Part shown: positions 9,674 through 38,108 of the stretch, piece by piece | Numbering within the stretch: the first letter of the stretch is position 1 | Layout: each line of letters opens with the position of its first letter | Assembly (NCBI GenBank): GCA_036725345.1 | Contig: DAIMEJ010000005.1 | Location: 19,717-83,716 of the forward strand | Source: Syntrophales bacterium | GTDB lineage: Bacteria > Desulfobacterota > Syntrophia > Syntrophales > UBA2192 | DNA: 64,000 nucleotides | Direction of reading: 5' to 3' | Notes under the pieces: model-generated | What the model was told of the DNA's origin: nothing | Databases searched by the model: none | Seen by the model: only the letters and a program-made list of their open reading frames with translations | Translations under genes and position numbers: made by a program

Positions 9674-9708
9674 AAAAAAAGGGCCGCAAGCCAATAAACC
9701 CGCAGCCC
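9674..9708 (-). terminator. displaced chromosomal tRNA-Cys terminator
   Basis: On the minus strand, GGGCTGCG-loop-TGCGGCCC followed by TTTTTTT, lying just 3' of the partial tRNA-Cys copy. Confidence 0.55.
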
Positions 9709-9721
9709 TTTTACTTTATTA

Positions 9722-9769
9722 TGGAGGCGGCAACCGGATTCGAACCGGTGAATAACGGTTTTGCAGACC
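9722..9769. repeat. att direct repeat (partial 3' copy of tRNA-Cys)
   Basis: 48 nt identical base for base to 20300-20347 (tRNA-Cys CCA end through the anticodon loop). The sequences diverge at 9770 / 20348. Confidence 0.9.
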
Positions 9770-9878
9770 AATCTTTAGTGTTTAAACCTACCTGATTTCA
9801 ATAACCTTTCCACCCTGCCCTTTTTCCCGTGTTGTGAAAATTGATGGGACTTAATTTTTCGAATGATTAATCTAGATG

Positions 9879-10157
9879 CTATTGCTTTAATTCTTTATTT
9901 TGGATTAAATACCATGACTCATTGGTTAACCAACCCCAATAATTATATCCAATTTCTGATATTATGAATCGATCATTCGGTAATTTTTCATGCAATTTTT
10001 CAGCAATTGTTTTTGCATCGTATTCCGACAACAAATAAAAACAACTTCTCATGTCATATCGCCATGTGATGATTTCTTTTATTGAGTTGATAATATTCAC
10101 CAACTCATCTCGTTTTTCTATTGATCTATTGTGAACTAATAAATAGACCTTTCTCAT
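9879..10157 (-). CDS. hypothetical small soluble protein (cargo cassette gene 2)
   Basis: 92-aa ORF in a strongly AT-rich block. Its start overlaps the upstream gene stop (ATGA, 10154-10157). No family recognised. Confidence 0.6.
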   Translation of the reverse strand: MRKVYLLVHNRSIEKRDELVNIINSIKEIITWRYDMRSCFYLLSEYDAKTIAEKLHEKLPNDRFIISEIGYNYWGWLTNESWYLIQNKELKQ

Positions 10158-10525
10158 TGTCCCCTATACTCAATCGTTGGCGTTTGTGGTGTCTCAATGA
10201 CTTTAGATAAATCAATAGCAGATGGAGATGGTTCACCCTTTTGTTGCATCAATTCTAACGATATTTTCTTTAATTGATATTCTTCTGATTGCAATTTGTC
10301 TCTGTCAAAAATCAATAAAAATAGAAAGCCGAAAACCGCAGTGGCAGCTGGTAAACTCATCAAAATTATAAGCCATGTCGGAGTAGGTGCTGCTAACCAA
10401 CAGCTCAAGAAAATAGCCAGCGGTGTAATTATAGCGCATAGCCATAAGATAGGGTTTAAGGCGCTTCGGACGGTAAGTTTTCCGCCTGCGTCTATTACCC
10501 TCGTTAAGATCTGCCCTCTATCCAT
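10154..10525 (-). CDS. hypothetical two-TM membrane protein (cargo cassette gene 1)
   Basis: 123 aa with two hydrophobic helices (ILWLCAIITPLAIFLSCWLAA, WLIILMSLPAATAVFGFLFLLIF) and a charged C-terminal tail. AT-rich promoter-like region upstream. Confidence 0.6.
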   Translation of the reverse strand: MDRGQILTRVIDAGGKLTVRSALNPILWLCAIITPLAIFLSCWLAAPTPTWLIILMSLPAATAVFGFLFLLIFDRDKLQSEEYQLKKISLELMQQKGEPSPSAIDLSKVIETPQTPTIEYRGQ

Positions 10526-10706
10526 ATATCCTTTAAAATTAAAAAAATAATACTTAGCTTTATTAAGAAGAGTGTTTTATATAACAAAAACTTTGAAATA
10601 ATTCATGTTAATTTTATTATGATTTTATGAAGAGGGCATTATCTTTTTAATCCCCTTTTGAATTTAAATCCCCCCCTAAAAGTACATTAACCGCCGAAGT
10701 GCTTCC

Positions 10707-11804
10707 TCAAGAAGAAAAACTTTCTTTGACACTCTCCATCACGATAAGTTTAGTTTTGGAAATGTTATCTAACAATTTCACCGCATTTAGTTTATGGCCC
10801 GGAAGCGGATGCTGATACCTCAATGCCATCTTAATCGTCTTGTGTCCCATGATTTCCATGATCGTTTTCACATCAACCCCCGCCATGCCGAGCCGTGATC
10901 CGAAAGTGTGACGAAGGTCATGGAACCTGAACCGAACCTCTTTCAGTTCACCACGGACATTTTCGAAACGCTTTAACCCCGCCTTGTCTATTGCCGTCCA
11001 GAAGGCGTTAGTGAGGACGGTCAGCCTTTCCCCCTTTTCGTTGCAGAAAACATATTCGGATTTCTCGTCTTCGATGCGTTTTCTCAGGATAGCGATCGCC
11101 GTTGCGTTGATCGGCACATTGCGGCCCTCTGTGTTCTTGGTCACGGTGACGCTGACATAACGATCCTTCAGGCGCACATCCTGTACCCGCAGGTTCATGA
11201 TCTCCCCGAGCCTCATCCCCGTATTGAGGGCGAATGTGACCATGCCCGGAAGGTACTTCTCCCGTTGTGGTCGATCCTCGCAAGCCTGAATGAGCCTCTT
11301 TTCCTCTTCCGGGGTCAGTACCCACATCTTCTCGTTATCCTCTTTGAGCATCTTCACCCTGACAAGGGGATTGTGATTAAGCAGTTTCCACTCGACGGCC
11401 TTGTTGAGCATGTTCCGAAGCGTGGCGATGTCCCTGTTCACCGTCGCGGGGGCCTTCTTCCCTTCCCTTCTCGCCTTCCTGAATTGCTCCACGGAAAAGG
11501 GGGTGATGTCGCCGAGCATCTTCCCGTCGAAGTGCTTTTTCAGGGTGTCGATCGAAACCCCGTTGCGCTTCGCCGACCCCGGCTTCTTGTTTGCCCCGGC
11601 GTACTTCATGTACCGCTTCGCGAAATCATCAAAGAGGATTTTCTTGATCTTCGGCTTCCACTCCCCCTGAATGACCTCTTGCCTGCGTATGACGAGCTTC
11701 TCCTTCGCCACGGTCCTGCTCACCGGGCCGACACACTCGCTGTACCGCCTGCCGTCATAAACGAAATCTATGTAGTGACTTTTGCCTCTTTTATAGACGC
11801 CCAT
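10707..11804 (-). CDS. int: tyrosine-type site-specific integrase
   Basis: 365 aa with the C-terminal catalytic signature HDLRHTFGSRLGMAGVDVKTIMEIMGHKTIKMALRYQH and an upstream NTGMRLGEI Arg box. Confidence 0.95.
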   Translation of the reverse strand: MGVYKRGKSHYIDFVYDGRRYSECVGPVSRTVAKEKLVIRRQEVIQGEWKPKIKKILFDDFAKRYMKYAGANKKPGSAKRNGVSIDTLKKHFDGKMLGDITPFSVEQFRKARREGKKAPATVNRDIATLRNMLNKAVEWKLLNHNPLVRVKMLKEDNEKMWVLTPEEEKRLIQACEDRPQREKYLPGMVTFALNTGMRLGEIMNLRVQDVRLKDRYVSVTVTKNTEGRNVPINATAIAILRKRIEDEKSEYVFCNEKGERLTVLTNAFWTAIDKAGLKRFENVRGELKEVRFRFHDLRHTFGSRLGMAGVDVKTIMEIMGHKTIKMALRYQHPLPGHKLNAVKLLDNISKTKLIVMESVKESFSS

Positions 11805-11835
11805 ATAATCACCTTCCTTCTTTTTCGTAACTTCA

Positions 11836-12132
11836 TCATATCTTGTTGTTTTTTTCAGCTTTGTCCAATCTGTCTAATTCCTTTTCTAATTCATCCAGTA
11901 CTCCATCTAAATCACTTTTATTCATGCGTGCTTGCTTGAGTGCCTCCCTATGCGATTTTCCTTCTCTATAAATGTAGAACAGAATCAACGGCCAGAAAAT
12001 GATACCCAACAAAACAAAATGTAAGTTCCTTAAATCAATCTTTCTGTCAAAACCATGAGCTTGCGATTGTCGAATCTTATAATAAACAACTAATACCCCT
12101 ACGATTAACCATCCCAAGACAACCTTTGTCAT
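11836..12132 (-). CDS. hypothetical two-TM membrane protein with coiled-coil tail
   Basis: 98 aa with helices VVLGWLIVGVLVVYY and FVLLGIIFWPLILFYIY, then LDGVLDELEKELDRLDKAEK. AT-rich DNA. Confidence 0.55.
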   Translation of the reverse strand: MTKVVLGWLIVGVLVVYYKIRQSQAHGFDRKIDLRNLHFVLLGIIFWPLILFYIYREGKSHREALKQARMNKSDLDGVLDELEKELDRLDKAEKNNKI

Positions 12133-12319
12133 GGCACTGTCCCCCTAAATGCTTTGATTTCAAAATTTATCTTCTTTCTGTGAAACCCCTACCTATACAA
12201 AAAAGCCTGAGACCTTCCCCGGAGCATAAGCATCCGCCCAAGCGTCGCCGCCGTGGGGATCTCAGGCTTTCTAATCTTGTCCTGTTTCATTGCTTATGCC
12301 TCGGGAATTTAGTTTTATA

Positions 12320-12331
12320 AGTTATATAACT
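12320..12331. promoter_or_regulatory. perfect 12-bp palindrome, candidate operator
   Basis: AGTTATATAACT lies in the divergent intergenic region, 66 nt upstream of the RHH gene start. Confidence 0.3.
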
Positions 12332-12396
12332 ATATGCACCTATTAAATCAAGAAAAATTACGTTGCGGATAATACCGCGTTTCGGTATAAAAGGCC

Positions 12397-12567
12397 ATGT
12401 CAACCGAGTTGCCAAAAATCATTTTTCACCTTGATGAATCGTTACTGAAGCGCCTTGATGATTTCCGTTTCAAGCATCGCATCAATTTCAGGTCCGCCGC
12501 CATCCGACGCCTTCTCGAAGAAGCCTTGAAGAAATACGAGAAACGCTCGATGAAGAAAGGGGGATGA
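12397..12567 (+). CDS. ribbon-helix-helix (CopG/Arc/MetJ-like) DNA-binding protein
   Basis: 56-aa ORF below the track cutoff, translated by hand: MSTELPKIIFHLDESLLKRLDDFRFKHRINFRSAAIRRLLEEALKKYEKRSMKKGG. It shows a beta-strand-helix-helix pattern. Its stop is 4 nt before the next gene. Confidence 0.65.
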   Translation: MSTELPKIIFHLDESLLKRLDDFRFKHRINFRSAAIRRLLEEALKKYEKRSMKKGG

Positions 12568-12571
12568 TATA

Positions 12572-13048
12572 TTGAGGAAATATTTTACCCTTCTTTTCAT
12601 ATTTGCTGTCTTGACACCCACTAATCTTTTTGCGGCTGATTTCTATCTATATCTGGATAACTGCAAAGCCACCGTGGGATACCTCGTCGAATCCAAAGAA
12701 AATATCAAAACAGTTGATTTTGATGAAATGATCATTTCGTGTAGTAGAGTATCCCAGACAATTAAATGCGAAACGGTTTTTTTTGAAGGACAAAAAGCCA
12801 TTCAAGAGAAAAAGTTTGAATACTTCGTTGAGTTAGATTCTCCGCCGATTCTCATTTTCACCGACACAATACGGAGCGACTATTTCGTGGTAGATCTTAA
12901 TCAACACGCCGTGACAATGGTTTCACGAGTTTTGGGTGAAAAATTTGCAGGATCTAAAATTTGCACGGGCCTATATTTTACTGAGAGTGAAAGAAAATTG
13001 TTAGAAGAGAAGAAGCCCCGCACTCCTACCCCTACCCGCAAAAAATAA
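12572..13048 (+). CDS. hypothetical secreted protein
   Basis: 158 aa with a TTG start and signal peptide MRKYFTLLFIFAVLTPTNLFA. It has four Cys and a basic Pro/Thr tail. No family recognised. Confidence 0.55.
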   Translation: MRKYFTLLFIFAVLTPTNLFAADFYLYLDNCKATVGYLVESKENIKTVDFDEMIISCSRVSQTIKCETVFFEGQKAIQEKKFEYFVELDSPPILIFTDTIRSDYFVVDLNQHAVTMVSRVLGEKFAGSKICTGLYFTESERKLLEEKKPRTPTPTRKK

Positions 13049-13121
13049 TCGCCCTGAATCAATCCTGCGAAGCCCTGAATAGGCATTGACGCCCTGTCCC
13101 CGGAGTGGTATCAAATTCGAC

Positions 13122-13424
13122 ATGGATATTTCAGACCGTGATGACAATATAATCACCCTGCTCGCCTATTATCTGCACCTTGATGCGCTTAAAAAAGAGG
13201 GCCTCCTTGACAATGAATTGTTAATTAAATTTTATGAAAATTTAACTGACGAACAAAAGATGCATCTTGTTTTCTTCCAATACAAACAAATATCACTTGC
13301 TAACGAATGGAAGAAATTTCTTGAGAACCCCGAACCTAATATCAGCCGTTCCGAAGCCGTCCGTCGCACCTTTGATGAAGCCATGAAGAAATTCGAAGAA
13401 CGGATAAAAAAAACGGAAAAGTGA
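13122..13424 (+). CDS. hypothetical helical protein
   Basis: ORF 13086-13424. The ATG at 13122 (MDISDRDD...) is the likelier start. AT-rich, and no family recognised. Confidence 0.5.
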   Translation: MDISDRDDNIITLLAYYLHLDALKKEGLLDNELLIKFYENLTDEQKMHLVFFQYKQISLANEWKKFLENPEPNISRSEAVRRTFDEAMKKFEERIKKTEK

Positions 13425-13439
13425 GCCTCCTTTCCGCCC

Positions 13440-13544
13440 TCACCGCACCATAAACGAAAGAATCCAAAAGATCACAGCCGCCGTCACTATAAAGCAATAG
13501 ACGATCCCCGGCGGGCTTTTGATTAAGTCTCTGAAAGTCTCCAT
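13440..13544 (-). CDS. possible 34-aa single-TM peptide
   Basis: Hand translation METFRDLIKSPPGIVYCFIVTAAVIFWILSFMVR. Its ATG is 2 nt after the stop of the upstream HTH gene. Support comes only from position and hydrophobicity. Confidence 0.25.
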   Translation of the reverse strand: METFRDLIKSPPGIVYCFIVTAAVIFWILSFMVR

Positions 13545-13545
13545 G

Positions 13546-13857
13546 TCATTTCTCCGTTGATCCGTTCTGAATGAGGGCGATCACGCTCGACCTGAAGATA
13601 CGGATCATCTTCCCCGTCGGATTGATGCCCCTGATGATGCCCTCGTCCTGCCATTCATAAATTTTCTTGATGGACACCCTGAAGAAAGCCGCAACCTCTT
13701 TCGGCTTCAGGAGATCACGATCGGGAAGCCCTTCGATGCTTTTCAAAGAGTGCGCCGCCTTCCCCTGCCAATCTTTTTTTAGGGACGGCCCGGAAGAAAG
13801 GGGAAAAAACCGGGCCATCCCCCGGAAAAGAGGTGACGGTATCGCCTGCGCTAACAA
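13546..13857 (-). CDS. excisionase-type (HTH_17/MerR-like) DNA-binding protein
   Basis: C-terminal LLKPKEVAAFFRVSIKKIYEWQDEGIIRGI helix-turn-helix. The start may be the internal Met at 13818. Confidence 0.7.
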   Translation of the reverse strand: MLAQAIPSPLFRGMARFFPLSSGPSLKKDWQGKAAHSLKSIEGLPDRDLLKPKEVAAFFRVSIKKIYEWQDEGIIRGINPTGKMIRIFRSSVIALIQNGSTEK

Positions 13858-13929
13858 AGGGATTTAACCCCGCGCGGCACACAGGCGATTTTCCGCGCCC
13901 GTCATCACGGTCAAGACGCCGCGCTTAAC

Positions 13930-15225
13930 TTATGTGAGGATCGCGGCCCACGAAAGCGAATCCGATCCGTTTGCGGGCGTGATCGCCGACTTCCAGATCG
14001 AAACGCCGTCCGCACGCAGGCAGGCCCGCCACGAAATCAAGTCCTCGGACCATCTCGCGCTGTTCGTGCTTTCAAGCGTCACTTCCTGCCTCATGGCGAG
14101 GATATACTGCGAGAGATCGGCGCAGACCAGATCGCCCTTTGTCCCGAGGGCCGAGAGCCGATCGGACACGATCAAAGGCCTGCCTAAAATGCTCATCGCA
14201 AAATCGCCCTGAATGTTCCCGCCCGAGATCGGCCAGATCAGGCCGTTCGCATCGTCCTTCAATCTCAAAATTTGCAGAAAAGCCCCCGGAGAGCATATCC
14301 AGACAACATTCGTGAGAAGCGGGGGCCAGATGCGCGAGAGCATCGCGGTGATGTCCGCATATCCGATCGCTCCCGCCGTCGCCCTCGCGATGCTGACCGC
14401 CGAGGGGGAGTCGATAACGCCCAACGGCTGACCGACGCCGCTCCCGACGAGGATCGCCTTGTCAAGACCCCCGGCGATCGCCTGCACAAGAGCGCCGCCT
14501 AACTGTGTCCCGAAGTCGATCCCGTCCTGCACAAGCTCCCTCGACGCCGAGGCATAAACGATCAGTTTTTTCGGAGTGAGAAGGACGCTCGTTAGTTCCG
14601 GGGACACTTCGGTTGATGCCGTGGCCTCGGCGGTCCATGTCGCTTCGATGTTCCCGACTTCTCCCGTGGTCCGGTCGAAAGAGTTCCACAGGGGGAAGTT
14701 CGTGTCGCCTGTCACCGGGACGGTTCGGACATACTTTGCCGTCACGCTTTGCGCCGCGATCAGGTTGACAAGGGCCGCGGACCAAAATTCTGGCACAAGA
14801 AAACCTCCCAGAACGCCCCCGCCTGCGATGTTCGTCCTTCTCTCGACGGTCCCGGTCGCCACGGCGTTGCAGAAGTCGCTGAAGCTGTCATACCCACCGC
14901 GATCCTCGGACGGCCCGAAAAGCCGCCGATAGTCAAGGCCGATCTGACCGAGCCGGGGGATCGGATCGAGCGATCGGGTTGTTTTGGGCTGATGAAGCCG
15001 TCTGATCGGCTCATTATCCCTGCGATCCAGTTCGGCGAAGATTTCCTTTTCCTGTTTTTCGAGATCGCGGTATTTCTGATCCTCGGCCTCCGACAGTTCC
15101 CCGGCCTTCTCGCTGTCCGTGAGAATACGGCTCATGCGATGCAGGATGTCCCCGCGATTCTCCCTCAATTCCGCGTCTGACATTTTCTTGAAATCTGGGT
15201 TCGTTGTTTCGGTGCGTGCTTTCAT
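13930..15225 (-). CDS. phage major capsid protein, HK97 family
   Basis: 431 aa. Charged coiled-coil N-terminal (delta-like) segment, then GGFLVPEFW, SRELVQDGIDF, GSGVGQPLGV and ILGRPLIVSD blocks typical of the Phage_capsid/HK97 family. GGAGG RBS. Confidence 0.9.
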   Translation of the reverse strand: MKARTETTNPDFKKMSDAELRENRGDILHRMSRILTDSEKAGELSEAEDQKYRDLEKQEKEIFAELDRRDNEPIRRLHQPKTTRSLDPIPRLGQIGLDYRRLFGPSEDRGGYDSFSDFCNAVATGTVERRTNIAGGGVLGGFLVPEFWSAALVNLIAAQSVTAKYVRTVPVTGDTNFPLWNSFDRTTGEVGNIEATWTAEATASTEVSPELTSVLLTPKKLIVYASASRELVQDGIDFGTQLGGALVQAIAGGLDKAILVGSGVGQPLGVIDSPSAVSIARATAGAIGYADITAMLSRIWPPLLTNVVWICSPGAFLQILRLKDDANGLIWPISGGNIQGDFAMSILGRPLIVSDRLSALGTKGDLVCADLSQYILAMRQEVTLESTNSARWSEDLISWRACLRADGVSIWKSAITPANGSDSLSWAAILT

Positions 15226-15261
15226 TTATCCTCCATTGAAGGTTGAATTTGCCTTCCACAC

Positions 15262-15329
15262 CGACCACAAAATAAAAAACGGGCGTTGCCTTCCTTATCC
15301 CTCCTCAGAGGGGGAAAGCACGCCCGTTT
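15262..15329 (-). terminator. strong intrinsic terminator immediately upstream of the capsid gene
   Basis: On the minus strand, AAACGGGCGT...(inner CCCCCTCtgagGAGGG)...ACGCCCGTTT followed by TTTATTTT. It lies between the 95-aa ORF stop (15387) and the MCP start (15225). Confidence 0.7.
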
Positions 15330-15386
15330 CAATTTCATGGCGGCTTCTATGTTCTTTTTTATTCATATCACATCCTGACCTGATAT

Positions 15387-15674
15387 TCAATCGGAATCAT
15401 CATGACGCCGCTTTTTCGGCATCTCATAATCATAATAGGCGCGGGGCTTCTCGTCGGCCTTCAGGGTCACGAACACGCCGGGGAGCCGGGGCTTCCCCGC
15501 AAGGCCCATGAGATAGGCGCGGTTCGCAAACCATCTTTCCCTGCGCTCGGAATCGTCGCGGAAGGGATAGCCACCGCCCAAGTGCCAGCCAGCCAATAAA
15601 TGCGCCGTCTGAAACGGGGTCAGACCGGAATCATTCAGGCGTTCGATTTTTTTCTTGACGGGCTTCCTCGGCAT
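15387..15674 (-). CDS. hypothetical protein (95 aa)
   Basis: Trimmed from ORF 15387-15845 to the ATG at 15674, which follows GAGGAT and lies 10 nt after the terS stop. No family recognised. Confidence 0.5.
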   Translation of the reverse strand: MPRKPVKKKIERLNDSGLTPFQTAHLLAGWHLGGGYPFRDDSERRERWFANRAYLMGLAGKPRLPGVFVTLKADEKPRAYYDYEMPKKRRHDDSD

Positions 15675-15684
15675 ATTCTGATCC

Positions 15685-16014
15685 TCACTTATAAAGTCCC
15701 GGCGGGCGGCTCTCGGGGATGCTCCCGAGATCGATCGCGATCTCGCGGACGGCCCGCAGGAATCCGATCCGCGATTGCTGAATGATCTTCGTCCCGGGAT
15801 GCTCCACAAGCCCGCCGTATCGGTTCCTGATGAACATCCCGTCACTTTCGATCGCCTTCATCGCCTGATCCTCATCGTCGAGAAAAAGGCACGCCCGCTC
15901 AAGACGGGCGAGATCGTGAGCGTCCCTGATCTCAAATTCTTTAAGAACGGCTATCCAGAATTTTCGGCCCGCTTCCTTCAGGGTCGAAGGCGGCTCCGGT
16001 TTGTCAATCGTCAT
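15685..16014 (-). CDS. phage terminase small subunit, P27 family
   Basis: 109 aa. The pattern GRKFWIAVLKEFEIRDAHDLARLERACLFLDDEDQAMKAI...GGLVEHPG resembles Terminase_4 (P27) small subunits. Confidence 0.8.
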   Translation of the reverse strand: MTIDKPEPPSTLKEAGRKFWIAVLKEFEIRDAHDLARLERACLFLDDEDQAMKAIESDGMFIRNRYGGLVEHPGTKIIQQSRIGFLRAVREIAIDLGSIPESRPPGLYK

Positions 16015-16117
16015 ACATACTCCCTCAATCGCTTTGAACAGGGTGAAAACGCACTAAGCGGACAGACCGGGAGCGTTATACGACGGAAAGTTTTTCGAAA
16101 GTCGATGCCCCCCGGCG

Positions 16118-16339
16118 TCATTGAATAAGCCTCGGTTTCCCGTCAATGCCCTGTTCCTCAAGTTCCTGTGCGGCTCTGTCCACAAGATATTGCCCGATGA
16201 TGCCGACGATCCCCTGAAGCGTTATCGCCGCGTTTTGCAGGCCTTCGAGATCGCCCTTTGCCATGAAGCCGTTCACCCACGCCGCGATCCGCTCGACCTC
16301 TTTTCGGTTCTCACGCATGAATTTGTCTGGTTTGTCCAT
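16118..16339 (-). CDS. hypothetical protein (73 aa)
   Basis: ORF sits in operon position between the primase and terS. No family recognised. Confidence 0.5.
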   Translation of the reverse strand: MDKPDKFMRENRKEVERIAAWVNGFMAKGDLEGLQNAAITLQGIVGIIGQYLVDRAAQELEEQGIDGKPRLIQ

Positions 16340-16412
16340 GTTCGTTCCTCTCTGTTTTTTTTAGATTCGCCCCGGCCCGATTCCGTGCGCTCAGACAAGA
16401 TTTCCCTTGTGG

Positions 16413-18428
16413 TTATCCTTCCCGGCTCGGGAAAGGGACACTCGTTGAACATCTGCGCCCCTGTGCGATAATAGGACGCAACGGCTCAAATTGAAGTTTT
16501 GCCCCCCGTGGATTCCGAAACCGGATATGCTGACCCTCGGGCAACCGGATGTCATCAACGATATACCGGACCTTCTTCAGAATGACATAGCCGTCGATGC
16601 CGCCCTGCTCTTTCCACATCGTCATGTGAATTGTCGCCGCATACTCGCTCTGTTGTTTTCCCTTTGCGGTATTCACGCCCTCGTCCTTCTGGATGGCGAC
16701 CAATACCACGCCGCTTCCGACCCTGCTTTTCATCCGTCTTAGATAGGTGTCCAGATTCGGATAATCGTCCGGGCTGAATTGAAACCAATCCAGAATGTTT
16801 ATGGCGTCGGGGACGATCAGGTCGGGATAATCGGCGGCAGGACGGGCGACTTCTTCACGGAAGTGGAAACGCCAATCATTCATCAGGCGGTGAAACCGTG
16901 GATCGGCTTCCTGTTCGAAACGGCGCAGATAGATGTTCACCTCATGCCGATTCAGTTCGGTCGATGTATAGACAATCCGGTGATCGTGGTCGTTCAATCG
17001 GATGAAGTTAAAGAAATAGGTTGATTTCCCTGACCCCGGCTCACCCGCAAGGACGATGAGCGAACCGGGATGGATGTCGGCATATTCGTGAAACCCGCCG
17101 GGAAGGGCGAGGCTGATAGGCTCTACCTGCTCTACATTCCGATAATCCACGAAACCGATGTGCGACAAAACCCGCCGATAAGCCCCGGCCCTCTGCGGAT
17201 GCCGTTCCGCATCGCCCCTCTGCACGGCACGGTGCAGATATGTTTTCGTCCTCACCGTCTTAATTCCCGTCCACCGGGAAACCTCGTCAATGGTCGTCCA
17301 CTTCCCTTCGTTTGCGAGGCAATCCAGAATCTTCCCATAATCAGAAGGCTGTGACCTGAATTGTGACTTCGAGTGACCGTCACAGGGTTGCTGTGACCTG
17401 TTTTCGTCGGCAGTTTCGTTCAAGTCCCCGAAATCATTAGAGGCGGCATTTTTTTCGGGCGTTTCGTCAGCCTGTGACCTGCGTGCGTGCGTATTAAAAG
17501 ATATATTTATATATTCCACATGTGGTGACTGATCCTCTGCGGTATCATCGCCGGGAGCTTGTGACACATTTTGTGACAGGTAACGCCTTGCCCTCTTGAT
17601 CTCATCGGCAAGCCAACGGTGACGGCCCCCGCCCTTCCCCCGGTACTTCAGGCCGCAGGGATAATTCTCGAAGATGTGATAGACGGCCCCCGGCTCTGCG
17701 CCCTGTGACAGCATGGAGCATATCAGGGCGAACCCCGCTTCGGATCGCGAGGGGTACTTCCCGATCGCCCCTTCCGTGACGAAAGCCCGAAGGTCATCCG
17801 AAAAAGTGAAGTCCTCGGGATCGACCTCGACGGGGTTGCCCAGTTCCATGTCGTTGTCGCCGTCGGCTTCCTCGTCTGCGGCAAGGCCCAGAAACCACTC
17901 GGGCGCCTCGGCGATCCGCACATCGAGCGATATTTCATACAGCTTCCCCGTGTCCGGGTGAACAGAGCCGGGAGCGACCACGCATCCCCCGTCGGCCCTG
18001 ATGTCGAAGCCGTGTTCCTTGAACGTCCGGTTGCGGTATCGCGTGCCGTTCTTCGGGTAGCGGAAGTAGTAGTGAAACTTTCCCGATCCTGTCATGACCT
18101 CAAGCGTGGTCGGGAGTCTCCACTTCTGACCCTCGGCGTACTTCCGAAACCGATCAAGATCGTCAATATCGAGAACGATCAGGCCCGATGCGGGACCGCA
18201 GGCGATCCCGGCGTTCTTGCCGATGTACTCACAGCCGTGAAACGGCCTTTGCTCCCTGCACCACTTCTGCCAATCGCTTTCGAAGGGAGCCTTGCCGATG
18301 AGCGGTATTAGGGAAAGGTCTCTCTCGTCGTGTAGCTCCCGCCACAGCAAGGGCGATTTATTTTCTGCGAGTGTTCCGACCTGCTCGGGCGTCAAGTCTT
18401 TCCACTTCCTTTCCGGTTGTTCGTTCAT
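16413..18428 (-). CDS. bifunctional PrimPol-type primase / P-loop replicative helicase
   Basis: Start trimmed to the ATG at 18428, preceded by GGAGGTGG. The N-terminal Prim-Pol pattern is GKAPFESDWQKW...GIACGPASGLIVLDIDD. A low-complexity linker and a wHTH-like segment follow, then Walker A LAGEPGSGKST and a RecA/DnaB-like C-terminal domain. Confidence 0.85.
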   Translation of the reverse strand: MNEQPERKWKDLTPEQVGTLAENKSPLLWRELHDERDLSLIPLIGKAPFESDWQKWCREQRPFHGCEYIGKNAGIACGPASGLIVLDIDDLDRFRKYAEGQKWRLPTTLEVMTGSGKFHYYFRYPKNGTRYRNRTFKEHGFDIRADGGCVVAPGSVHPDTGKLYEISLDVRIAEAPEWFLGLAADEEADGDNDMELGNPVEVDPEDFTFSDDLRAFVTEGAIGKYPSRSEAGFALICSMLSQGAEPGAVYHIFENYPCGLKYRGKGGGRHRWLADEIKRARRYLSQNVSQAPGDDTAEDQSPHVEYINISFNTHARRSQADETPEKNAASNDFGDLNETADENRSQQPCDGHSKSQFRSQPSDYGKILDCLANEGKWTTIDEVSRWTGIKTVRTKTYLHRAVQRGDAERHPQRAGAYRRVLSHIGFVDYRNVEQVEPISLALPGGFHEYADIHPGSLIVLAGEPGSGKSTYFFNFIRLNDHDHRIVYTSTELNRHEVNIYLRRFEQEADPRFHRLMNDWRFHFREEVARPAADYPDLIVPDAINILDWFQFSPDDYPNLDTYLRRMKSRVGSGVVLVAIQKDEGVNTAKGKQQSEYAATIHMTMWKEQGGIDGYVILKKVRYIVDDIRLPEGQHIRFRNPRGAKLQFEPLRPIIAQGRRCSTSVPFPSREG
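17348..17580. other. origin-of-replication-like iteron cluster with AT-rich core, inside the primase coding sequence
   Basis: CTGTGACCTG occurs perfectly at 17348, 17390 and 17471. TGTGAC cores are at 17361, 17559 and 17571. GTGACCGTCAC palindrome at 17372-17382. A 24-nt almost pure A/T run spans 17491-17514. CCACATGTGG palindrome at 17515-17524. Confidence 0.5.
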
Positions 18429-18526
18429 ATCCACCTCCGAAATGGATGTCCGATAGTCAAGGCGCGGGGAGCGGGTCGGAGTTCCCGCCGTCAGCCGATC
18501 GAGCCTACCCCGCACCCATTTTGCCG

Positions 18527-19480
18527 TCACGATAGAAGCCGCTTTTTGTCTTGTTCGTTGTCTGATTCGTGGCGATTTCTATCTCCGTCCAGTTCTGCAA
18601 ATTGTCTCAGGAGCCGAGCCTTCCCTGCGTCAAAACTAAGCCTTGCCGATGTCCCTTCGTATATGTCCGAATTGAAAGTTTCCCTGCGAACAACCAAATG
18701 GTCTATCTGGTCACTCAAGCGCGGCATCATGTCGGCAACATACTGAATGAATGAACCGAACGGTTGTATTTGATAAAGCTTTCCGTCTTGCCCTGTGTCG
18801 GTTGTCTGTTCTGCTTTCTGTTCAACGAAAACATCCATCCGCCTGATTATAATTTGAGCTAACGTTCTTGCCCGTTCAAATGTAGCTTCCTTCCAATTCT
18901 TCGGCGGCTCTTTAGGAAGGATCAAAAGAACCCGTTCAAGCGTTTCAATATAAATCTGCGCTTCAAGGCTATCTTCTATCGAAGATGCTTTGCTTTTCGA
19001 TTGCTCTTTTCTCTGCTTTTCTTTCTCGTAATTTATGGCATTGATAACGGCGGTCTTTGTCGGGATGTCCTCGTTCTCCCTCGCCTGCGCTTTTATTTTC
19101 TCCACCACAGCCGGGTTCTCGGAAATGGCTCGGGCCTGATGCGCTCGCTTATGGTCTATGCCTTCGGGAAGCACTTTTGATGGTGTACCCTTCGGGACAC
19201 CTTTCCGTCCGGTCATCGCTTTATCCCTGCTCGGCAATAGCTCACCGATGCGGCCTTCAATATCGAGAAGAAGTTCCCCCGCATCCTGACCGTCTTTCAG
19301 CGTGGCCTTTCGCTGTTCTTCTGCCATACCTAACTTGTCCATCGCCTTGACCTTCGCCCGGTAATAACTGACAGCCGCTTGCCCAATGAATGACAACGGC
19401 ACAAGGTCATCCAGTTTTCCGGGCAGTAGCTTCTGCGCCTTCACCAGTTTGAAAATCTCTGTGGCTTCTTTTCCCTTCAT
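18527..19480 (-). CDS. hypothetical protein (317 aa)
   Basis: Start trimmed to the ATG at 19480, after AAGGGGG. Charged, helical, and no family recognised. Sits between the AlpA-like gene and the primase. Confidence 0.55.
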   Translation of the reverse strand: MKGKEATEIFKLVKAQKLLPGKLDDLVPLSFIGQAAVSYYRAKVKAMDKLGMAEEQRKATLKDGQDAGELLLDIEGRIGELLPSRDKAMTGRKGVPKGTPSKVLPEGIDHKRAHQARAISENPAVVEKIKAQARENEDIPTKTAVINAINYEKEKQRKEQSKSKASSIEDSLEAQIYIETLERVLLILPKEPPKNWKEATFERARTLAQIIIRRMDVFVEQKAEQTTDTGQDGKLYQIQPFGSFIQYVADMMPRLSDQIDHLVVRRETFNSDIYEGTSARLSFDAGKARLLRQFAELDGDRNRHESDNEQDKKRLLS

Positions 19481-19505
19481 GGTATGCCCCCTTCTTTTTC
19501 TTTTT

Positions 19506-19700
19506 TTATTCCTTGACAACCTCGTTGAGCTTCACACCCGGCGATGCATCGGCCCACGATTCGATTTCGTCACGGAAAAAAATTAACCGTCCACCCGCCT
19601 TCCTGAATGGGATCCGTCGGCGAAGCACAAGGTTCCTGACGGCTCCCGGTGTCCGGTGGAGATAATTGCTCACATGCTGTACCAACCAAATTTCACGCAT
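19506..19700 (-). CDS. AlpA/excisionase-type HTH regulator
   Basis: 64 aa. IWLVQHVSNYLHRTPGAVRNLVLRRRIPFRKAGGRLIFFRDEIESW fits the HTH_17 pattern. Confidence 0.7.
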   Translation of the reverse strand: MREIWLVQHVSNYLHRTPGAVRNLVLRRRIPFRKAGGRLIFFRDEIESWADASPGVKLNEVVKE

Positions 19701-19893
19701 CGGGAAAGATTTCCTTCTCGTCGCAGGTGAGAAGCTTCGCCCACTTCCTGCGTTGCTCTGCCGTCAGAACCTTCCGTCCCCGCAGGACGCGGGACACATC
19801 GGCTTCGTGGATTCCGACCTCGCGTGCAAACTCCCATTGTGACCCGTGGGTTTCGATGATCCGGGCCTTCAGCTTCCTGTTCACATCCTTCAT
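19693..19893 (-). CDS. Cro/XRE-like HTH regulator
   Basis: 66 aa. SQWEFAREVGIHEADVSRVLRGRK is a helix-turn-helix. AGGAG RBS. First gene of the minus-strand operon. Confidence 0.7.
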   Translation of the reverse strand: MKDVNRKLKARIIETHGSQWEFAREVGIHEADVSRVLRGRKVLTAEQRRKWAKLLTCDEKEIFPDA

Positions 19894-19910
19894 GGCTCGC
19901 TCCTATGCTG

Positions 19911-19950
19911 AAAATAAAAAAAGCCGCCCACGCCAAACGGCGTGAACGGC
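19911..19950 (-). terminator. intrinsic terminator just upstream of the Cro-like gene
   Basis: On the minus strand, GCCGttCACGCC-gttt-GGCGTGggCGGC followed by TTTTTTTATTTT. It ends 17 nt before the ATG at 19893. Confidence 0.6.
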
Positions 19951-20076
19951 CTTCCAATTGCGAATTGTGTTTTTTAAAGAGCCATCATTGCAAATGCCGC
20001 TTCACACGCATGGCGGTGTCAACTAACTGCGCTGGGACGAAAAGGGTAATCACATCTGCGATGATGTTCTGAATAA

Positions 20077-20104
20077 ATTTTACTGTGTTATTTCTGAACG
20101 TCAA
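20077..20104 (-). promoter_or_regulatory. candidate sigma-70 promoter reading toward the Cro-like operon
   Basis: On the minus strand, TTGACG (20104-20099), a 16-nt spacer, then TAAAAT (20082-20077). Confidence 0.35.
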
Positions 20105-20241
20105 CAAGAAAATTGCTTATGCCGAAAATACTGCCCTATCTGATGCATCTGATGCATGGAAAGGTGTTGTGAAAATTACTGTGACTCGGGAGGCGAAAAG
20201 CGGGTTTTTTGTGCTTTACCGTACTTTCTGTGATACTCATC

Positions 20242-20286
20242 GAGAAAAAGAAAAAGGGTCGCAAGTCATTGATATACCTGCAACCC
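20242..20286 (-). terminator. element-borne terminator now serving the tRNA-Gly/tRNA-Cys transcript
   Basis: On the minus strand, GGGTTGCA-15 nt loop-TGCGACCC followed by TTTTTCTTTTTC. Homologous with indels to 9674-9708. Confidence 0.55.
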
Positions 20287-20299
20287 TCTGACTTTATTT

Positions 20300-20347
20300 T
20301 GGAGGCGGCAACCGGATTCGAACCGGTGAATAACGGTTTTGCAGACC
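20300..20347. repeat. att direct repeat inside the intact tRNA-Cys
   Basis: Identical to 9722-9769. Confidence 0.9.
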
Positions 20348-20375
20348 GCTGCCTTAGCCACTTGGCTATGCCGCC
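20300..20375 (-). tRNA. tRNA-Cys (anticodon GCA)
   Basis: Reverse complement GGCGGCATAGCCAAGTGGCTAAGGCAGCGGTCTGCAAAACCGTTATTCACCGGTTCGAATCCGGTTGCCGCCTCCA folds as a cloverleaf. Anticodon loop CTGCAAA, discriminator U, encoded CCA. Confidence 0.95.
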
Positions 20376-34958: not shown

Positions 34959-36338
34959 TTATAGGATGTACCGGCTCAGGTCCTCGTCTTCGATGATGTC
35001 CTGAAGTTTTTCCTTGACGTACTCGGCGTTGATCGTCACGTCCTTCTTTTTCATCTCCGAGGCGCCAAAAGAGATCTCGTCCAGAAGGGTTTCCATCACC
35101 GTGTAGAGTCTTCGGGCGCCGATGTTCTCCGTCCGTTCATTCACCAGGGAGGCCACCCCCGCGACCTCCGCGATCGCGTCTTCCGTAAAGGTGATATCGA
35201 TGCCTTCCGTTGCAAGCATTTCGATATACTGCTTCACCAGCGCGTTCGAGGGTTCCGTCAGAATCCGGACGAAGTCCTCCTTCGTGAGCGAATCCAGCTC
35301 CACGCGGATGGGAAAGCGGCCCTGCAGCTCCGGGATGAGGTCCGAGGGCTTGGAAGAACTGAAGGCCCCCGCCGCGATGAAGAGGACGTGATCCGTCCTC
35401 ACCATGCCGTATTTCGTGTTGACCGTGGATCCCTCCACGATGGGCAGGAGGTCCCTCTGGACACCCTCGCGGGACACATCGGGCCCATGGGCGCTGTTGC
35501 TCCCGACGATCTTGTCGATTTCGTCGAGAAAGATGATCCCCGACTGTTCCACGCGGGTGAGGGACGTCCGGACCACCTTGTCCATGTCGATGAGCCTCTG
35601 GACCTCTTCCTCGATGAGGATCTCCATCGCCTCCGGAACCTTGACCCTTCTTCGCTTCATTTTTTTCGGGAAGATGTTTCCGAACATCTCCTTGATGTTC
35701 AGGCCCAGATCCTCGACACCGGAAGCGGAGAACACCTCGACAAAGGGGCCCACCCGGGTGTCGGCCACATCCAGATCGACGAGCCGGTTGTCCAGTTCCC
35801 CCCGACGAAGGAGCTGCCTCAATTTCTCGCGGGTATCCTGTCTCGCGACAGCCCCATTCGAATCGGCCTGCTCACGCTCTTCCTCGGGGAGTTCCACCTT
35901 CCGCGTTTCCGTTTTCCGGTGCGGGAAGAGGATATCCAGGATCCGCTCCTCGGCCAGCTCTTCAGCCTTGAAACGGACCCTTTCCATTTCTTCCGACTTC
36001 ACCATGTTGACGGCGATCTCGACGAGATCCCTGATCATGGAATCGACGTCACGCCCCACATATCCCACCTCGGTGAACTTGGACGCCTCGATCTTGAGGA
36101 AGGGCGAATTGTCGAGCTTGGCCAGCCTGCGGGCGATCTCCGTCTTTCCCACGCCGGTGGGCCCGATCATGATGATATTCTTCGGCGCGATCTCGTCCCG
36201 GAGATCCTCGGAAACATTCTGGCGTCGCCAGCGGTTCCGGAGGGCTATCGCCACGGCACGCTTCGCGTTATTCTGACCGACAATATACCGGTCGAGTTCA
36301 GCTACGATTTTCTTGGGGGTCAGTTCTTCCGATGACAT
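34959..36338 (-). CDS. hslU: ATP-dependent protease ATPase subunit HslU
   Basis: Start set at the ATG at 36338 ([22 protein letters not shown]). [15 protein letters not shown] Walker A and [10 protein letters not shown] Walker B. Confidence 0.95.
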
Positions 36339-36425
36339 CCTGTTTCGTCCCGCAGGCTCCTCTGTTTCATGTGGCACGGGCCATGGGCCCGATCCGTTCA
36401 ACGCTTGTCACCCGGCGCGCATCCG

Positions 36426-37007
36426 TCAGGGTTTCTTCTTCGTCCTGTGAACCGGCGGCTCCGGCGGTTCCGCCGTGTCCAGCTCCTCGATGGTCACTCG
36501 GTCGTTGGTGAAGATGCACAGGTCGGCGGCGATTCGCATGGCCTCTTTCGCGATTCCCGTGGCATCGAGGTCCGAATGTTTGATGAGCGCTCTCGCCGCC
36601 GCGAGGGCGTAAGGACCGCCGGATCCGATGGCAGCCACGTTGTCGTCGGACTCGATGACGTCGCCGTTGCCCGAGATGATGAGAAAGTGCTCCTTGCTGA
36701 CGGCCACCATCAGGGCCTCCAGGTGCCTCAAAACCCTGTCCGTCCTCCAGTCCTTGGTCAGTTCCACGGCGGCTCGAAGCAGGTTGCCGTTGTATTGATC
36801 CAGCTTCTGGTCAAACCGGTCAAAAAGGGTAAAGGCATCGGCCGTCGCGCCGGCAAAGCCGACGATCACCTGGTTGTGATAAAGCCGCCGGACCTTCCTG
36901 GCACCGTGCTTGAGCACGGTGTTGTCCAGGGTGACCTGACCGTCACCGGCCACCGTGACCCTTCCCCTGTGCCGCACCGCAATAATCGTCGTGCCTTTCA
37001 TCATCAT
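36426..37007 (-). CDS. hslV: ATP-dependent protease subunit HslV
   Basis: [10 protein letters not shown]-terminal Thr nucleophile region and a [14 protein letters not shown] motif. Upstream of hslU. Confidence 0.93.
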
Positions 37008-37085
37008 TTTAGTCCGTCTCGTCTGTCTGGTCTATTTGGTTCTTTCGCACCACTTTGCATTTTTCACTCATTACTGTCTCTGCCG

Positions 37086-38015
37086 TCACTTCGCCCTCGG
37101 GTGCGACTTGTCGTACACCTCCATCAGGCGACTCACGCTCACCGCCGTGTATTTCTGCGTCGTCGACAGGCTTTCGTGACCGAGCAACTCCTGAATGACA
37201 CGGAGATCCGCACCGGCGTCGAGAAGGTGAGTCGCGAAAGAATGCCGCAGCGTGTGCGGCCCGACCCGTTTGTTCACCCCGCTCATGCGGATGTATTTCT
37301 CGACGATCCGGGCCACGCTTCTTTCCGTCAGCCTCGTGCCCAGCCGATTCACGAAAATCGGGGCCTCGAGGTAGTTCTCCGCCCTGGCCCGGACCAGCGC
37401 TTTCCGTTTCTGAAGGTACGCCGAAAGGGCCGAGATCGCCGGCTTCCCCACAGGAACGATCCTTTCTTTCCTGCCCTTTCCCTTGACCTTCATGACGCCC
37501 TGGCCAAGATCGACATCCCCGAGATTAAGACCCGTCAGTTCTCCAACCCGGACACCTGAAGAGTAGATGAGCTCCAGGATGGCCCTGTCCCGTCGTCCCG
37601 CCGGATCGTCCCCGAAGGCCACTTTCAAAAGCGAGAACACCTCGTCCACCGAGAGGCTGACCGGCAGGTACTTATCCCTTCGGGGCGACTGGACCATTTC
37701 GGCGGGGCTCTGCCTCACCCTTCCCCGCCGCACGAGGAAATTGAAAAAGGATCGAAGCGCCGCCACCTTCCGGGACACGGTGCTCCTTTTCGTCTTGTTC
37801 CGATAGAGGGAACTCAGAAAGGACCGGATGACCATGTGGTCGATCTGGTCCAGCCTCCCCCTCGGCAGCAGCTCCTGCCCCTCGAGAAATCCCCTGAACT
37901 GATTCAGGTCAATGAGGTAATTCCGCTTCGTGTGAGGGCTCAGGTTCCGCTCGCTTTCCAGGTGGACGCCGAACTCCCCGATGAGCTTCTCCAGTGTGGT
38001 GTCGCCTTTTGTCAT
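37086..38015 (-). CDS. xerC: tyrosine recombinase XerC/XerD family
   Basis: Start set at the ATG at 38015. GVRVGELTGL Arg box and C-terminal HTLRHSFATHLLDAGADLRVIQELLGHESLSTTQKY. The xerC-hslVU context supports XerC. Confidence 0.85.
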   Translation of the reverse strand: MTKGDTTLEKLIGEFGVHLESERNLSPHTKRNYLIDLNQFRGFLEGQELLPRGRLDQIDHMVIRSFLSSLYRNKTKRSTVSRKVAALRSFFNFLVRRGRVRQSPAEMVQSPRRDKYLPVSLSVDEVFSLLKVAFGDDPAGRRDRAILELIYSSGVRVGELTGLNLGDVDLGQGVMKVKGKGRKERIVPVGKPAISALSAYLQKRKALVRARAENYLEAPIFVNRLGTRLTERSVARIVEKYIRMSGVNKRVGPHTLRHSFATHLLDAGADLRVIQELLGHESLSTTQKYTAVSVSRLMEVYDKSHPRAK

Positions 38016-38108
38016 TTCACAAAAAGAAGTGCCACGAAAACACACAAGGGAGGACCTCACATCGGATTCAGGGCCGGTTGTTCGTCCGTGTGTTCTTGTG
38101 GCAGATAT

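Follow-up and report, generated by a model that had tools for sequence, protein, structure and literature searches.

The 64,000-nt stretch of Syntrophales DNA analysed here (contig DAIMEJ010000005.1; 'the window' throughout) carries an integrative element at the 3′ end of a tRNA-Cys(GCA) gene. Two copies of a 48-nt attachment (att) repeat, located with a repeat finder and identical at 48/48 positions, enclose 10,530 bp (start-to-start spacing 10,578), and both correspond to the 3′ part of the tRNA from the CCA end through the anticodon loop. The core of a phage-inducible chromosomal island (PICI) has been defined as an integrase, a regulator (alpA/merR/stl), a primase-replicase, a capsid-like gene for capsid morphogenesis and terS; genes for a portal, connector, tail or holin are forbidden components (de Sousa et al. 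2023, PMC10085698). All five core components are present between the repeats and none of the forbidden ones was detected. Because this set equals the published core, we conclude that the element is probably a PICI-type phage satellite, integrated by its own tyrosine integrase at the tRNA-Cys 3′ end of a Syntrophales bacterium. The host group is one not sampled before; the kind of element is not new.

We compared all 16 open reading frames (ORFs) of the element with Pfam and the 10 core ORFs with PHROGs and NCBIfam as well. The gene order is cro, alpA, a 317-aa ORF, the primase-polymerase (Prim-Pol) gene, a 73-aa ORF, the small terminase (TerS) gene, a 95-aa ORF, the gene for the major capsid protein (MCP), a second helix-turn-helix (HTH) gene, a cargo block, the integrase gene and another cargo block. 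The core genes and the integrase gene share one strand, and the core ORFs are all intact and of full length. The features, with their positions in the window, are as follows.

9676-9721, minus strand: native chromosomal sequence 3′ of the tRNA, outside the element, with a terminator-like hairpin; resembles 20251-20299
9722-9769, minus strand: distal att repeat, the displaced 3′ 48 nt of tRNA-Cys; identical to 20300-20347
9879-10525, minus strand: AT-rich cargo block 1, ORFs of 92 aa and 123 aa (membrane segments predicted in the latter); GC 0.33-0.36; no significant Pfam match
10707-11804, minus strand: tyrosine integrase, 365 aa; PF00589 2e-36, Int_N and a SAM-like N-terminal domain, phrog_1 4.7e-73
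11836-13424, both strands: AT-rich cargo block 2, a 98-aa membrane ORF (minus), a 56-aa weak ribbon-helix-helix ORF (plus), a 158-aa ORF (plus) and a 112-aa ORF (plus); GC 0.36-0.43; weak Pfam matches only
13546-13857, minus strand: excisionase-family HTH_17 protein (66-103 aa, according to the start codon chosen); PF12728 2.1e-8, TIGR01764 'excise' 1e-3
13930-15225, minus strand: HK97-type MCP homologue, 431 aa; PF05065 1.1e-33 over residues 140-417, phrog_10 4e-44
15226-15386, minus strand: conserved capsid-gene leader with a promoter-like site, a long hairpin with a U-run (terminator-like) and then a ribosome-binding site; by eye and from the fold
15387-15674, minus strand: 95-aa ORFan between TerS and the capsid leader; no family match
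15685-16014, minus strand: P27-family TerS, 109 aa; PF05119 2.5e-4, phrog_83 4e-8, TIGR01558 9.7e-6
16118-16339, minus strand: 73-aa ORF kept with the packaging module; 48% identical to its equivalent in the related element L008
16413-18530, minus strand: replicase of 671-705 aa, Prim-Pol primase-polymerase with a RecA/DnaB-like P-loop domain; PF09250 3.6e-24 over residues 70-212
18527-19480, minus strand: all-alpha 317-aa protein, its N-terminal 220 aa in a widespread phage-associated family that has no Pfam model
19506-19700, minus strand: AlpA-type HTH_17 regulator, 64 aa; PF12728 6.7e-7, 29.9 bits against a cut-off of 27
19693-19893, minus strand: Cro/CI-type HTH protein, 66 aa; DUF739, HTH_31 and HTH_3 below threshold, phrog_1468 repressor 2.3e-5
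19918-20104, minus strand: promoter-like TTGACG-16-TAAAAT (20104-20077), then a 17-bp terminator-like hairpin (19955-19918); consensus scan
20251-20299, minus strand: element-borne copy of the tRNA-downstream sequence, the inner arm of attP; 97-nt alignment
20300-20375, minus strand: intact tRNA-Cys(GCA), by ARAGORN and Rfam; its 3′ 48 nt (20300-20347) form the proximal att repeat

The profile searches bore out the calls of integrase, capsid protein, TerS, Prim-Pol and HTH proteins that a first-pass annotation had made from the sequence, TerS with the reservation given below, and its general satellite logic, built on these same proteins, appears reasonable. The integrase matches are generic, of Xer and phage type. 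Among the HTH proteins, it is the 64-aa protein that supplies the PICI regulator through the HTH_17 profile (29.9 bits); it gave no match to the Pfam AlpA model PF05930. The C-terminal P-loop region of the replicase matched DnaB_C, GvpD, RadA and KaiC weakly at residues 483-550. For the 317-aa protein we found 288 homologues of about 230 aa, 50-60% identical over the N-terminal 220 aa, which adjoin Prim-Pol genes in phage-like contigs (one of them 69 kb). Its AlphaFold model is all-alpha (pLDDT 79) and found no fold or sequence match in the PDB, the only protein matched being an uncharacterised siphovirus protein. The 95-aa ORF retrieved no homologue but itself among 5.8 billion proteins.

The two cargo blocks lie on either side of the integrase gene and have a GC content of 0.33-0.43 versus about 0.58 in the host. 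The hydrophobic N-terminus of the 158-aa cargo ORF reads as a signal peptide, making it a putatively secreted protein. A PADLOC scan of ten cargo and unassigned ORFs returned no match to a defence system.

Portal, protease, large terminase (TerL), connector, tail and holin or lysis genes were not detected in the searches described above. The ORFs left without assignment measure at most 158 aa, except for the 317-aa protein. Since this largest unassigned ORF encodes an all-alpha protein whose homologues sit in phage replication modules, no candidate is left for a portal or TerL. The element cannot form a virion alone and is not an autonomous prophage, as the first-pass annotation had held.

The packaging genes and the capsid-gene leader

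The capsid protein matched TIGR01554 at 2.7e-48 over residues 19-418, which covers model positions 3-383 of 385 and thus essentially the full model; it fits the phage models PF05065 and TIGR01554, not encapsulin models. The N-terminal region of about 140 aa that precedes the Pfam capsid domain is read as a putative delta (scaffolding) domain. The TerS match taken alone falls below the cut-off in each of the three libraries. The assignment holds at the level of the family, which comprises 1,055 relatives of about 110 aa: PF05119 was matched by 51 of the 61 members sampled. A scan of 185,579 species genomes with a three-sequence capsid alignment found no relative.

Comparison with L008, a related element described below, revealed purifying selection on the shared genes. 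The ratio of non-synonymous to synonymous substitution rates (dN/dS) is 0.19 for the MCP gene at a dS of about 1.4, which argues against a prophage remnant, and it is 0.34 for TerS, 0.30 for the 73-aa ORF and 0.42 for the HTH_17 gene (dS about 1.1-1.8 across the genes compared). The excisionase-family HTH_17 gene, whose product is 49% identical to its L008 equivalent, is kept directly after the capsid gene.

An intergenic gap of 161 nt separates the 95-aa ORF from the capsid gene, and it holds the leader listed above, in which the promoter-like site, recognised by eye, is TTGAAT-17-TGATATGAA. A 127-nt non-coding segment (15247-15372, minus strand; 6622-6745 in L008) is 89% identical between the window and L008, and the two leaders share a perfect core of 48 nt, AGCCGCCATGAAATTGAAACGGGCGTGCTTTCCCCCTCTGAGGAGGGA. 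By comparison, the synonymous sites of the genes adjoining the leader differ at 63% (pS 0.63) and the capsid proteins are 72% identical. Conservation of the leader is thus far stronger than that of the adjoining coding sequence. The leader RNA folds with -61.9 kcal/mol (z = -5.7) into a long hairpin that ends in the U-run. More distant relatives have intergenic regions of 200-300 nt before their capsid genes, and in 3/3 of those tested promoter-like sites (9-10 of 12 positions matching) stand at the head of this region.

We propose that the capsid gene may form a separate transcription unit behind a conserved promoter, a structured leader and a terminator. The conserved 127-nt segment may act as a packaging site or else as a terminator or leader under regulation. 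The late genes of P4-like satellites are switched on by helper late-gene factors (P2 Ogr / P4 Delta). By a similar route, and we say this with low confidence, the leader terminator might make capsid expression depend on a late-gene factor of the helper, be it antiterminator or activator. The promoter-like site and hairpin at 19918-20104 lie directly upstream of the cro/alpA/replicase operon, and this early operon also seems to begin with a leader terminator. The U-tract of the early-operon hairpin (TTTTTTTATTTT) resembles that of the capsid leader.

The integration site

The tRNA-Cys(GCA) gene is followed on the minus strand by tRNA-Gly(GCC) and tRNA-Val(CAC), as called by ARAGORN and Rfam; the Rfam scan reported tRNAs and no other RNA family. 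The first-pass annotation had described the 48-nt repeat as the 3′ part of tRNA-Cys(GCA), and it proved exact. An exact repeat of 48 nt within 12 kb is far beyond chance. Similarity between the two ends runs on in degenerate form for about 49 nt past the tRNA end (9676-9769 versus 20251-20347, 88.7% over 97 nt), and on the native side it includes a terminator-like hairpin at 9712-9677. This degenerate similarity indicates that the element brings its own copy of the terminator-like stretch that follows the tRNA. At 9729-9792, over the distal att repeat, there is a weak partial match to a tRNA.

Both junctions are covered at ≥99.95% identity by independent assemblies made with different assemblers (ENA NODE_327, JGI Ga0116242 and megahit k141) from several digester metagenomes, and also by an NCBI metagenome-assembled genome (MAG). 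As independent assemblies span both junctions, an assembly duplication, a doubt raised in the first-pass annotation, is ruled out. The flanks consist of housekeeping genes, as that annotation had it: lipoprotein and sCache proteins on one side, and the tRNAs, a DUF374 acyltransferase and pgsA on the other.

Several features of the site and of the contigs around it are recorded here as separate observations. A perfect 9-nt tandem repeat (ATCTGATGC x2.2), overlapping an 11-nt palindrome, lies at 20138-20157, with the early promoter on one side and the att site on the other; a role as operator or as integrase arm site is conceivable. Several independent assemblies end their contigs within the AT-rich cargo or the integrase gene (at about 9955, 10490, 11550-11583 and 13493), perhaps because AT-rich DNA was poorly covered or because the cargo varies between strains. 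In the closest related species (L023, L024, L025, L027 and L029), contigs that carry the DUF374/pgsA or the radical-SAM flank stop at or near the tRNA-Val/Gly/Cys cluster. Such ends would be expected if mobile elements or repeats sat there too.

One contig, L003, appeared to hold the element at a second integration site and was set aside. Its left flank (L003 1-4764) matches another species, L029, at 99.8% identity, and the remainder matches the window at 99.95%; this megahit contig is most likely a chimeric join at the tRNA-Gly/tRNA-Cys genes that both share. L029 is another Syntrophobacterales MAG, and its flank genes encode a radical SAM protein, Memo/AMMECR1 and spermine synthase. The identical tRNA-Gly/tRNA-Cys stretch in this co-resident species is a potential alternative attB. 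A second tyrosine recombinase in the window (37086-38060, 324 aa, SAM_1 + Phage_integrase) was likewise rejected as a mobile element: it adjoins an AAA_2 ATPase, and the region 34959-38060 looks like a housekeeping xerC-hslU locus.

Related elements, proposed life cycle and competing explanations

Six related elements of 9.3-10.2 kb were found. Four are bounded by exact tRNA 3′-end repeats, and two are complete contigs that start and end in a tRNA 3′-end segment. The relatives are as follows.

L008: 9.28 kb (9,309-nt contig, both ends the same 30 nt of a tRNA 3′ end); capsid protein identity 72%
L012/L013: 10.2 kb, tRNA-Lys, 48-nt repeat
L104/L105: 9.3 kb, tRNA-Asn, 45-nt repeat
L106: 10.0 kb, tRNA-Arg, 58-nt repeat
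L107: 10.0 kb, tRNA-Asn, 52-nt repeat

Each relative has an integrase, an HTH protein, a replicase (DnaB/AAA_25 or DUF5906) and an MCP, with the replicase module swapped among them. L008 and the window share a block made up of the 73-aa ORF, TerS, a short ORF, the leader, MCP and HTH_17; the L008 replicase differs from that of the window and carries AAA_25 and DUF3223. The phrog_83 TerS is found in L012 and L103 too. The closest full-length relatives of the capsid protein all lie in small integrative elements and none in phages. L108, a true Streptomyces prophage with TerL, portal, ClpP, MCP and tail genes, matches the C-terminal 65% of the capsid protein only. The same restricted gene set recurs at 9.3-10.6 kb in at least six independent elements at five tRNA genes (Cys here; Lys, Asn, Arg and one untyped). 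Their sizes are uniform, their att repeats at different tRNA genes intact, their replicases exchanged and the shared genes under purifying selection, all of which points to a functional class of mobile elements and not to prophage debris.

Two tRNA-Asn relatives differ: in place of TerS, beside the capsid gene, L104 (11279-13225) and L107 (9126-11126) encode a protein of 648-666 aa with strong matches to tape-measure PHROGs, and L104 additionally has a ClpP protease. They recall the recently described EPIP satellites of Mycolicibacterium.

If the element is a PICI-type satellite, its life cycle can be sketched as follows. Infection by, or induction of, an HK97-like helper phage (cos or pac) would lead to excision by the integrase together with the HTH_17 excisionase or the AlpA protein, and the element would then replicate with its own Prim-Pol-helicase replicase. 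Its TerS would steer the helper TerL to satellite DNA. The satellite capsid protein, alone or co-assembled with that of the helper, would assemble around the helper portal into small heads sized for about 10 kb, for which the SaPIbov5 protein Ccm is a precedent, and the helper would provide the protease for head maturation, the tails and lysis. As a weaker proposal, the leader terminator might tie capsid expression to an antiterminator or activator of the helper's late genes. The size range of 9.3-10.6 kb would fit the constraint of a small capsid; for comparison, the T=4 head of P4 holds 11.6 kb.

Several results weigh against a mobile, helper-dependent PICI. We infer mobility and helper dependence alike. 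The element occupies the same site in 20/20 contigs that contain the capsid gene and in 18/18 that contain the flanking lipoprotein gene. The checks for an empty site and for attP and attB junctions that the first-pass annotation had suggested were run on contigs and yielded none: exact 76-mers of the predicted attB and attP had no match in JGI metagenome contigs, and a genome scan with the DUF374 protein for an empty tRNA-Cys site in other species gave no site information, as the contigs of the three closest DUF374 relatives (74-82% identity) end at the tRNA cluster and the more distant ones lack synteny. A search for a helper, suggested in the same place, encountered no HK97-type prophage in the 64-kb window and no second capsid or TerS gene there. 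In IMG/VR, TerS has no relative and the capsid protein has relatives at 24-30% only; the leader motif has no match among the viral contigs of that database, and the antitermination idea draws on sequence features alone. No replication origin with iterons was recognised 3′ of the replicase, where there are weak imperfect repeats of 13-14 nt only. The canonical PICI order (integrase at one end, then regulator, primase-replicase, capsid and terS) is not followed: the integrase gene occupies the far end without a change of strand, and TerS stands ahead of the capsid gene. Finally, EcCICFT073, a PICI with a capsid homologue, has no sequence homology to the element beyond the integrase catalytic domain.

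The last two of these points bear on the strongest competing explanation, that the element belongs, as the first-pass annotation had suggested, to a distinct unnamed satellite family and not to the PICIs: a lineage of tRNA-integrating elements of about 10 kb that evolved independently of the enterobacterial and staphylococcal PICIs and has its own HK97 capsid clade and P27 TerS. The different gene order and the lack of homology to EcCICFT073 outside the integrase catalytic core speak for it, as do the placement of the nearest full-length capsid relatives in small elements, the specific conservation of the capsid leader, and a published census in which 97% of the PICIs with all five components came from E. 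coli (PMC10085698). However, a PICI is defined by architecture and lifestyle and not by homology, and every testable defining component is present here. Environmental bacteria already offer a case of the concept in the PICI-like tycheposons, which occupy tRNA genes and have MCP or terS, and the relatives of our element exchange replicase and integrase modules freely, as PICIs do. We consider a separate family unlikely.

Less likely still is a remnant that has become fixed and immobile in the population, once a satellite or else an HK97-like prophage with heavy deletions. Such a remnant would account for the presence of the element at the same site in every contig of the species, for the missing attB and attP sequences and for the AT-rich cargo accumulated on both sides of the integrase. 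However, assemblies are a consensus and would miss rare excised forms. Furthermore, the att repeats have remained identical, the core ORFs are intact and the capsid gene is under purifying selection, and recurrence of one gene set and size in at least six elements at five tRNA genes is not a product of decay by deletion.

It is highly improbable that the element is an integrative defence island, in which the capsid homologue and TerS serve as decoys that poison phage assembly and packaging and no transfer in particles takes place. PICI capsid homologues do interfere with helper reproduction (PMC8569155, PMC6092414), and the cargo sits where satellites usually hold defence genes; the PADLOC scan, however, returned no match, a dedicated replicase plus TerS is the signature of an element that packages its own DNA, and the relatives vary so little in size that a packaging constraint is indicated. 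Barely credible, lastly, is an autonomous portal-less and tail-less mini HK97 virus or an encapsulin-like compartment: a 2025 'twilight virus' preprint reads elements of about 9 kb with integrase, MCP and replicase and without portal or tail genes as mini-viruses, but TerS implies packaging that depends on a terminase and a portal, the capsid protein fits phage and not encapsulin models, lysis gene and cargo enzyme are lacking, and no mechanism is known by which an HK97 shell packages double-stranded DNA without a portal.

The PICI-type reading thus stands as the favoured one, and the relatives allow a broader and decidedly tentative suggestion: the element may belong to a broad unnamed clade of environmental satellites with a capsid protein of their own. 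Members of this clade would integrate into tRNA genes of different bacteria, measure 9.3-10.6 kb, share an HK97 capsid lineage that is specific to satellites and has a delta domain of its own, usually pair it with a P27 TerS, and express the capsid gene as a late unit behind a conserved promoter, a structured leader and a terminator that senses a helper late antiterminator or activator. If so, satellites beyond the enterobacterial and staphylococcal models would have a helper-sensing device of a new sort.

Nearly all characterised phage satellites come from Enterobacteria, Staphylococcus, Vibrio or one of a few marine groups. Syntrophales are key syntrophs in anaerobic digesters, and a PICI-type element in them, together with relatives of 9-10 kb in other uncultured bacteria, would widen this host range and would point to phage-satellite-host conflicts in communities without any cultured phage. 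With their common size, tRNA targets, swapped replicases and selected capsid protein, the relatives form a comparative set for asking how a lone capsid gene redirects helper head assembly, and the capsid leader is a testable candidate for timing capsid expression to the late phase of the helper.

Comparison with known phage satellites

The first-pass annotation had stated that the element fits no satellite family that it could name, and this does not hold. The comparison there was made with capsid-forming PICIs (cfPICIs) and P4 only, and with respect to these two it was correct. Like cfPICIs, the element has its own HK97 capsid protein and TerS; however, cfPICIs have 11 core components, among them portal, protease, head-tail adaptor, connector, TerL and HNH, and none of those was detected here. 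Neither Pfam nor PHROGs gave a match to the P4-like markers psu, delta, sid and epsilon, and in place of an alpha primase the element has a Prim-Pol replicase. P4 also differs in strategy, since it reshapes the helper capsid by means of an external scaffold and possesses neither a capsid-protein homologue nor TerS. Against the family of PICIs as a whole the outcome is different, with all five core components present (PMC10085698) and capsid homologues without a portal documented in SaPIbov5, EcCICFT073, PmCI172 and tycheposons.

Other small elements were considered as analogues and rejected: VEIMEs encode no capsid gene, MulchRoom and MiniFlayer carry a portal and TerL, and EPIPs were rejected for this element, though its relatives L104 and L107 resemble them.

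PICI-like tycheposons of Prochlorococcus and other marine bacteria are elements of about 10 kb integrated into tRNA genes, with a tyrosine recombinase, an excisionase, a primase/helicase and either MCP or terS. Compared by description, they share with our element the tRNA integration, the replication module and the presence of a packaging gene. Unlike them, the element has both MCP and terS, and its host belongs to another phylum and habitat; tycheposons are, moreover, defined by a specific clade of tyrosine recombinases.

For the capsid gene, SaPIbov5 Ccm is the best mechanistic model. Ccm is a delta-domain protein with the HK97 fold and supplies the pentamers in small T=4 capsids whose remainder is helper protein, and SaPIbov5 itself encodes neither portal nor protease (PMC8569155). 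Unlike the element described here, SaPIbov5 uses the helper cos site, resides in a Firmicute and is regulated by the Stl repressor, and Ccm, at 355 aa, is unrelated in sequence.

Closest in layout are the Gram-negative PICIs with a capsid homologue, EcCICFT073, PmCI172 and Type A of SatelliteFinder, which like our element are integrative islands, flanked by att repeats and about 10 kb long, that encode an integrase, an AlpA-type HTH protein, a primase-replicase and an MCP homologue. The EcCICFT073 gene c1499 and the MCP homologue of PmCI172 are capsid homologues in islands without portal or protease, and PmCI172 makes small capsids (PMC6092414). We located EcCICFT073 in the CFT073 chromosome (L110 15931-26655), where it consists of int, an HTH gene, a primase gene, the major capsid protein gene and a head-decoration gene. 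The element shares with EcCICFT073 and PmCI172 the lack of portal, protease, TerL, tail and lysis genes and the position of accessory genes beside the integrase, and with PmCI172 and the Type A PICIs the presence of terS; a terS-before-capsid order has been reported in one PICI variant (PMC10085698). Unlike EcCICFT073, whose 351-aa major capsid protein has no similarity to the HK97-type capsid protein found here with its delta-like N-terminal region, it lacks a head-decoration gene, has its integrase at the opposite end on the same strand, has a Prim-Pol as replicase and resides in Syntrophales. The lineage may merit a sub-family name of its own. Collectively, the architecture of the element is already known from these islands, whereas its lineage, layout and host group differ.

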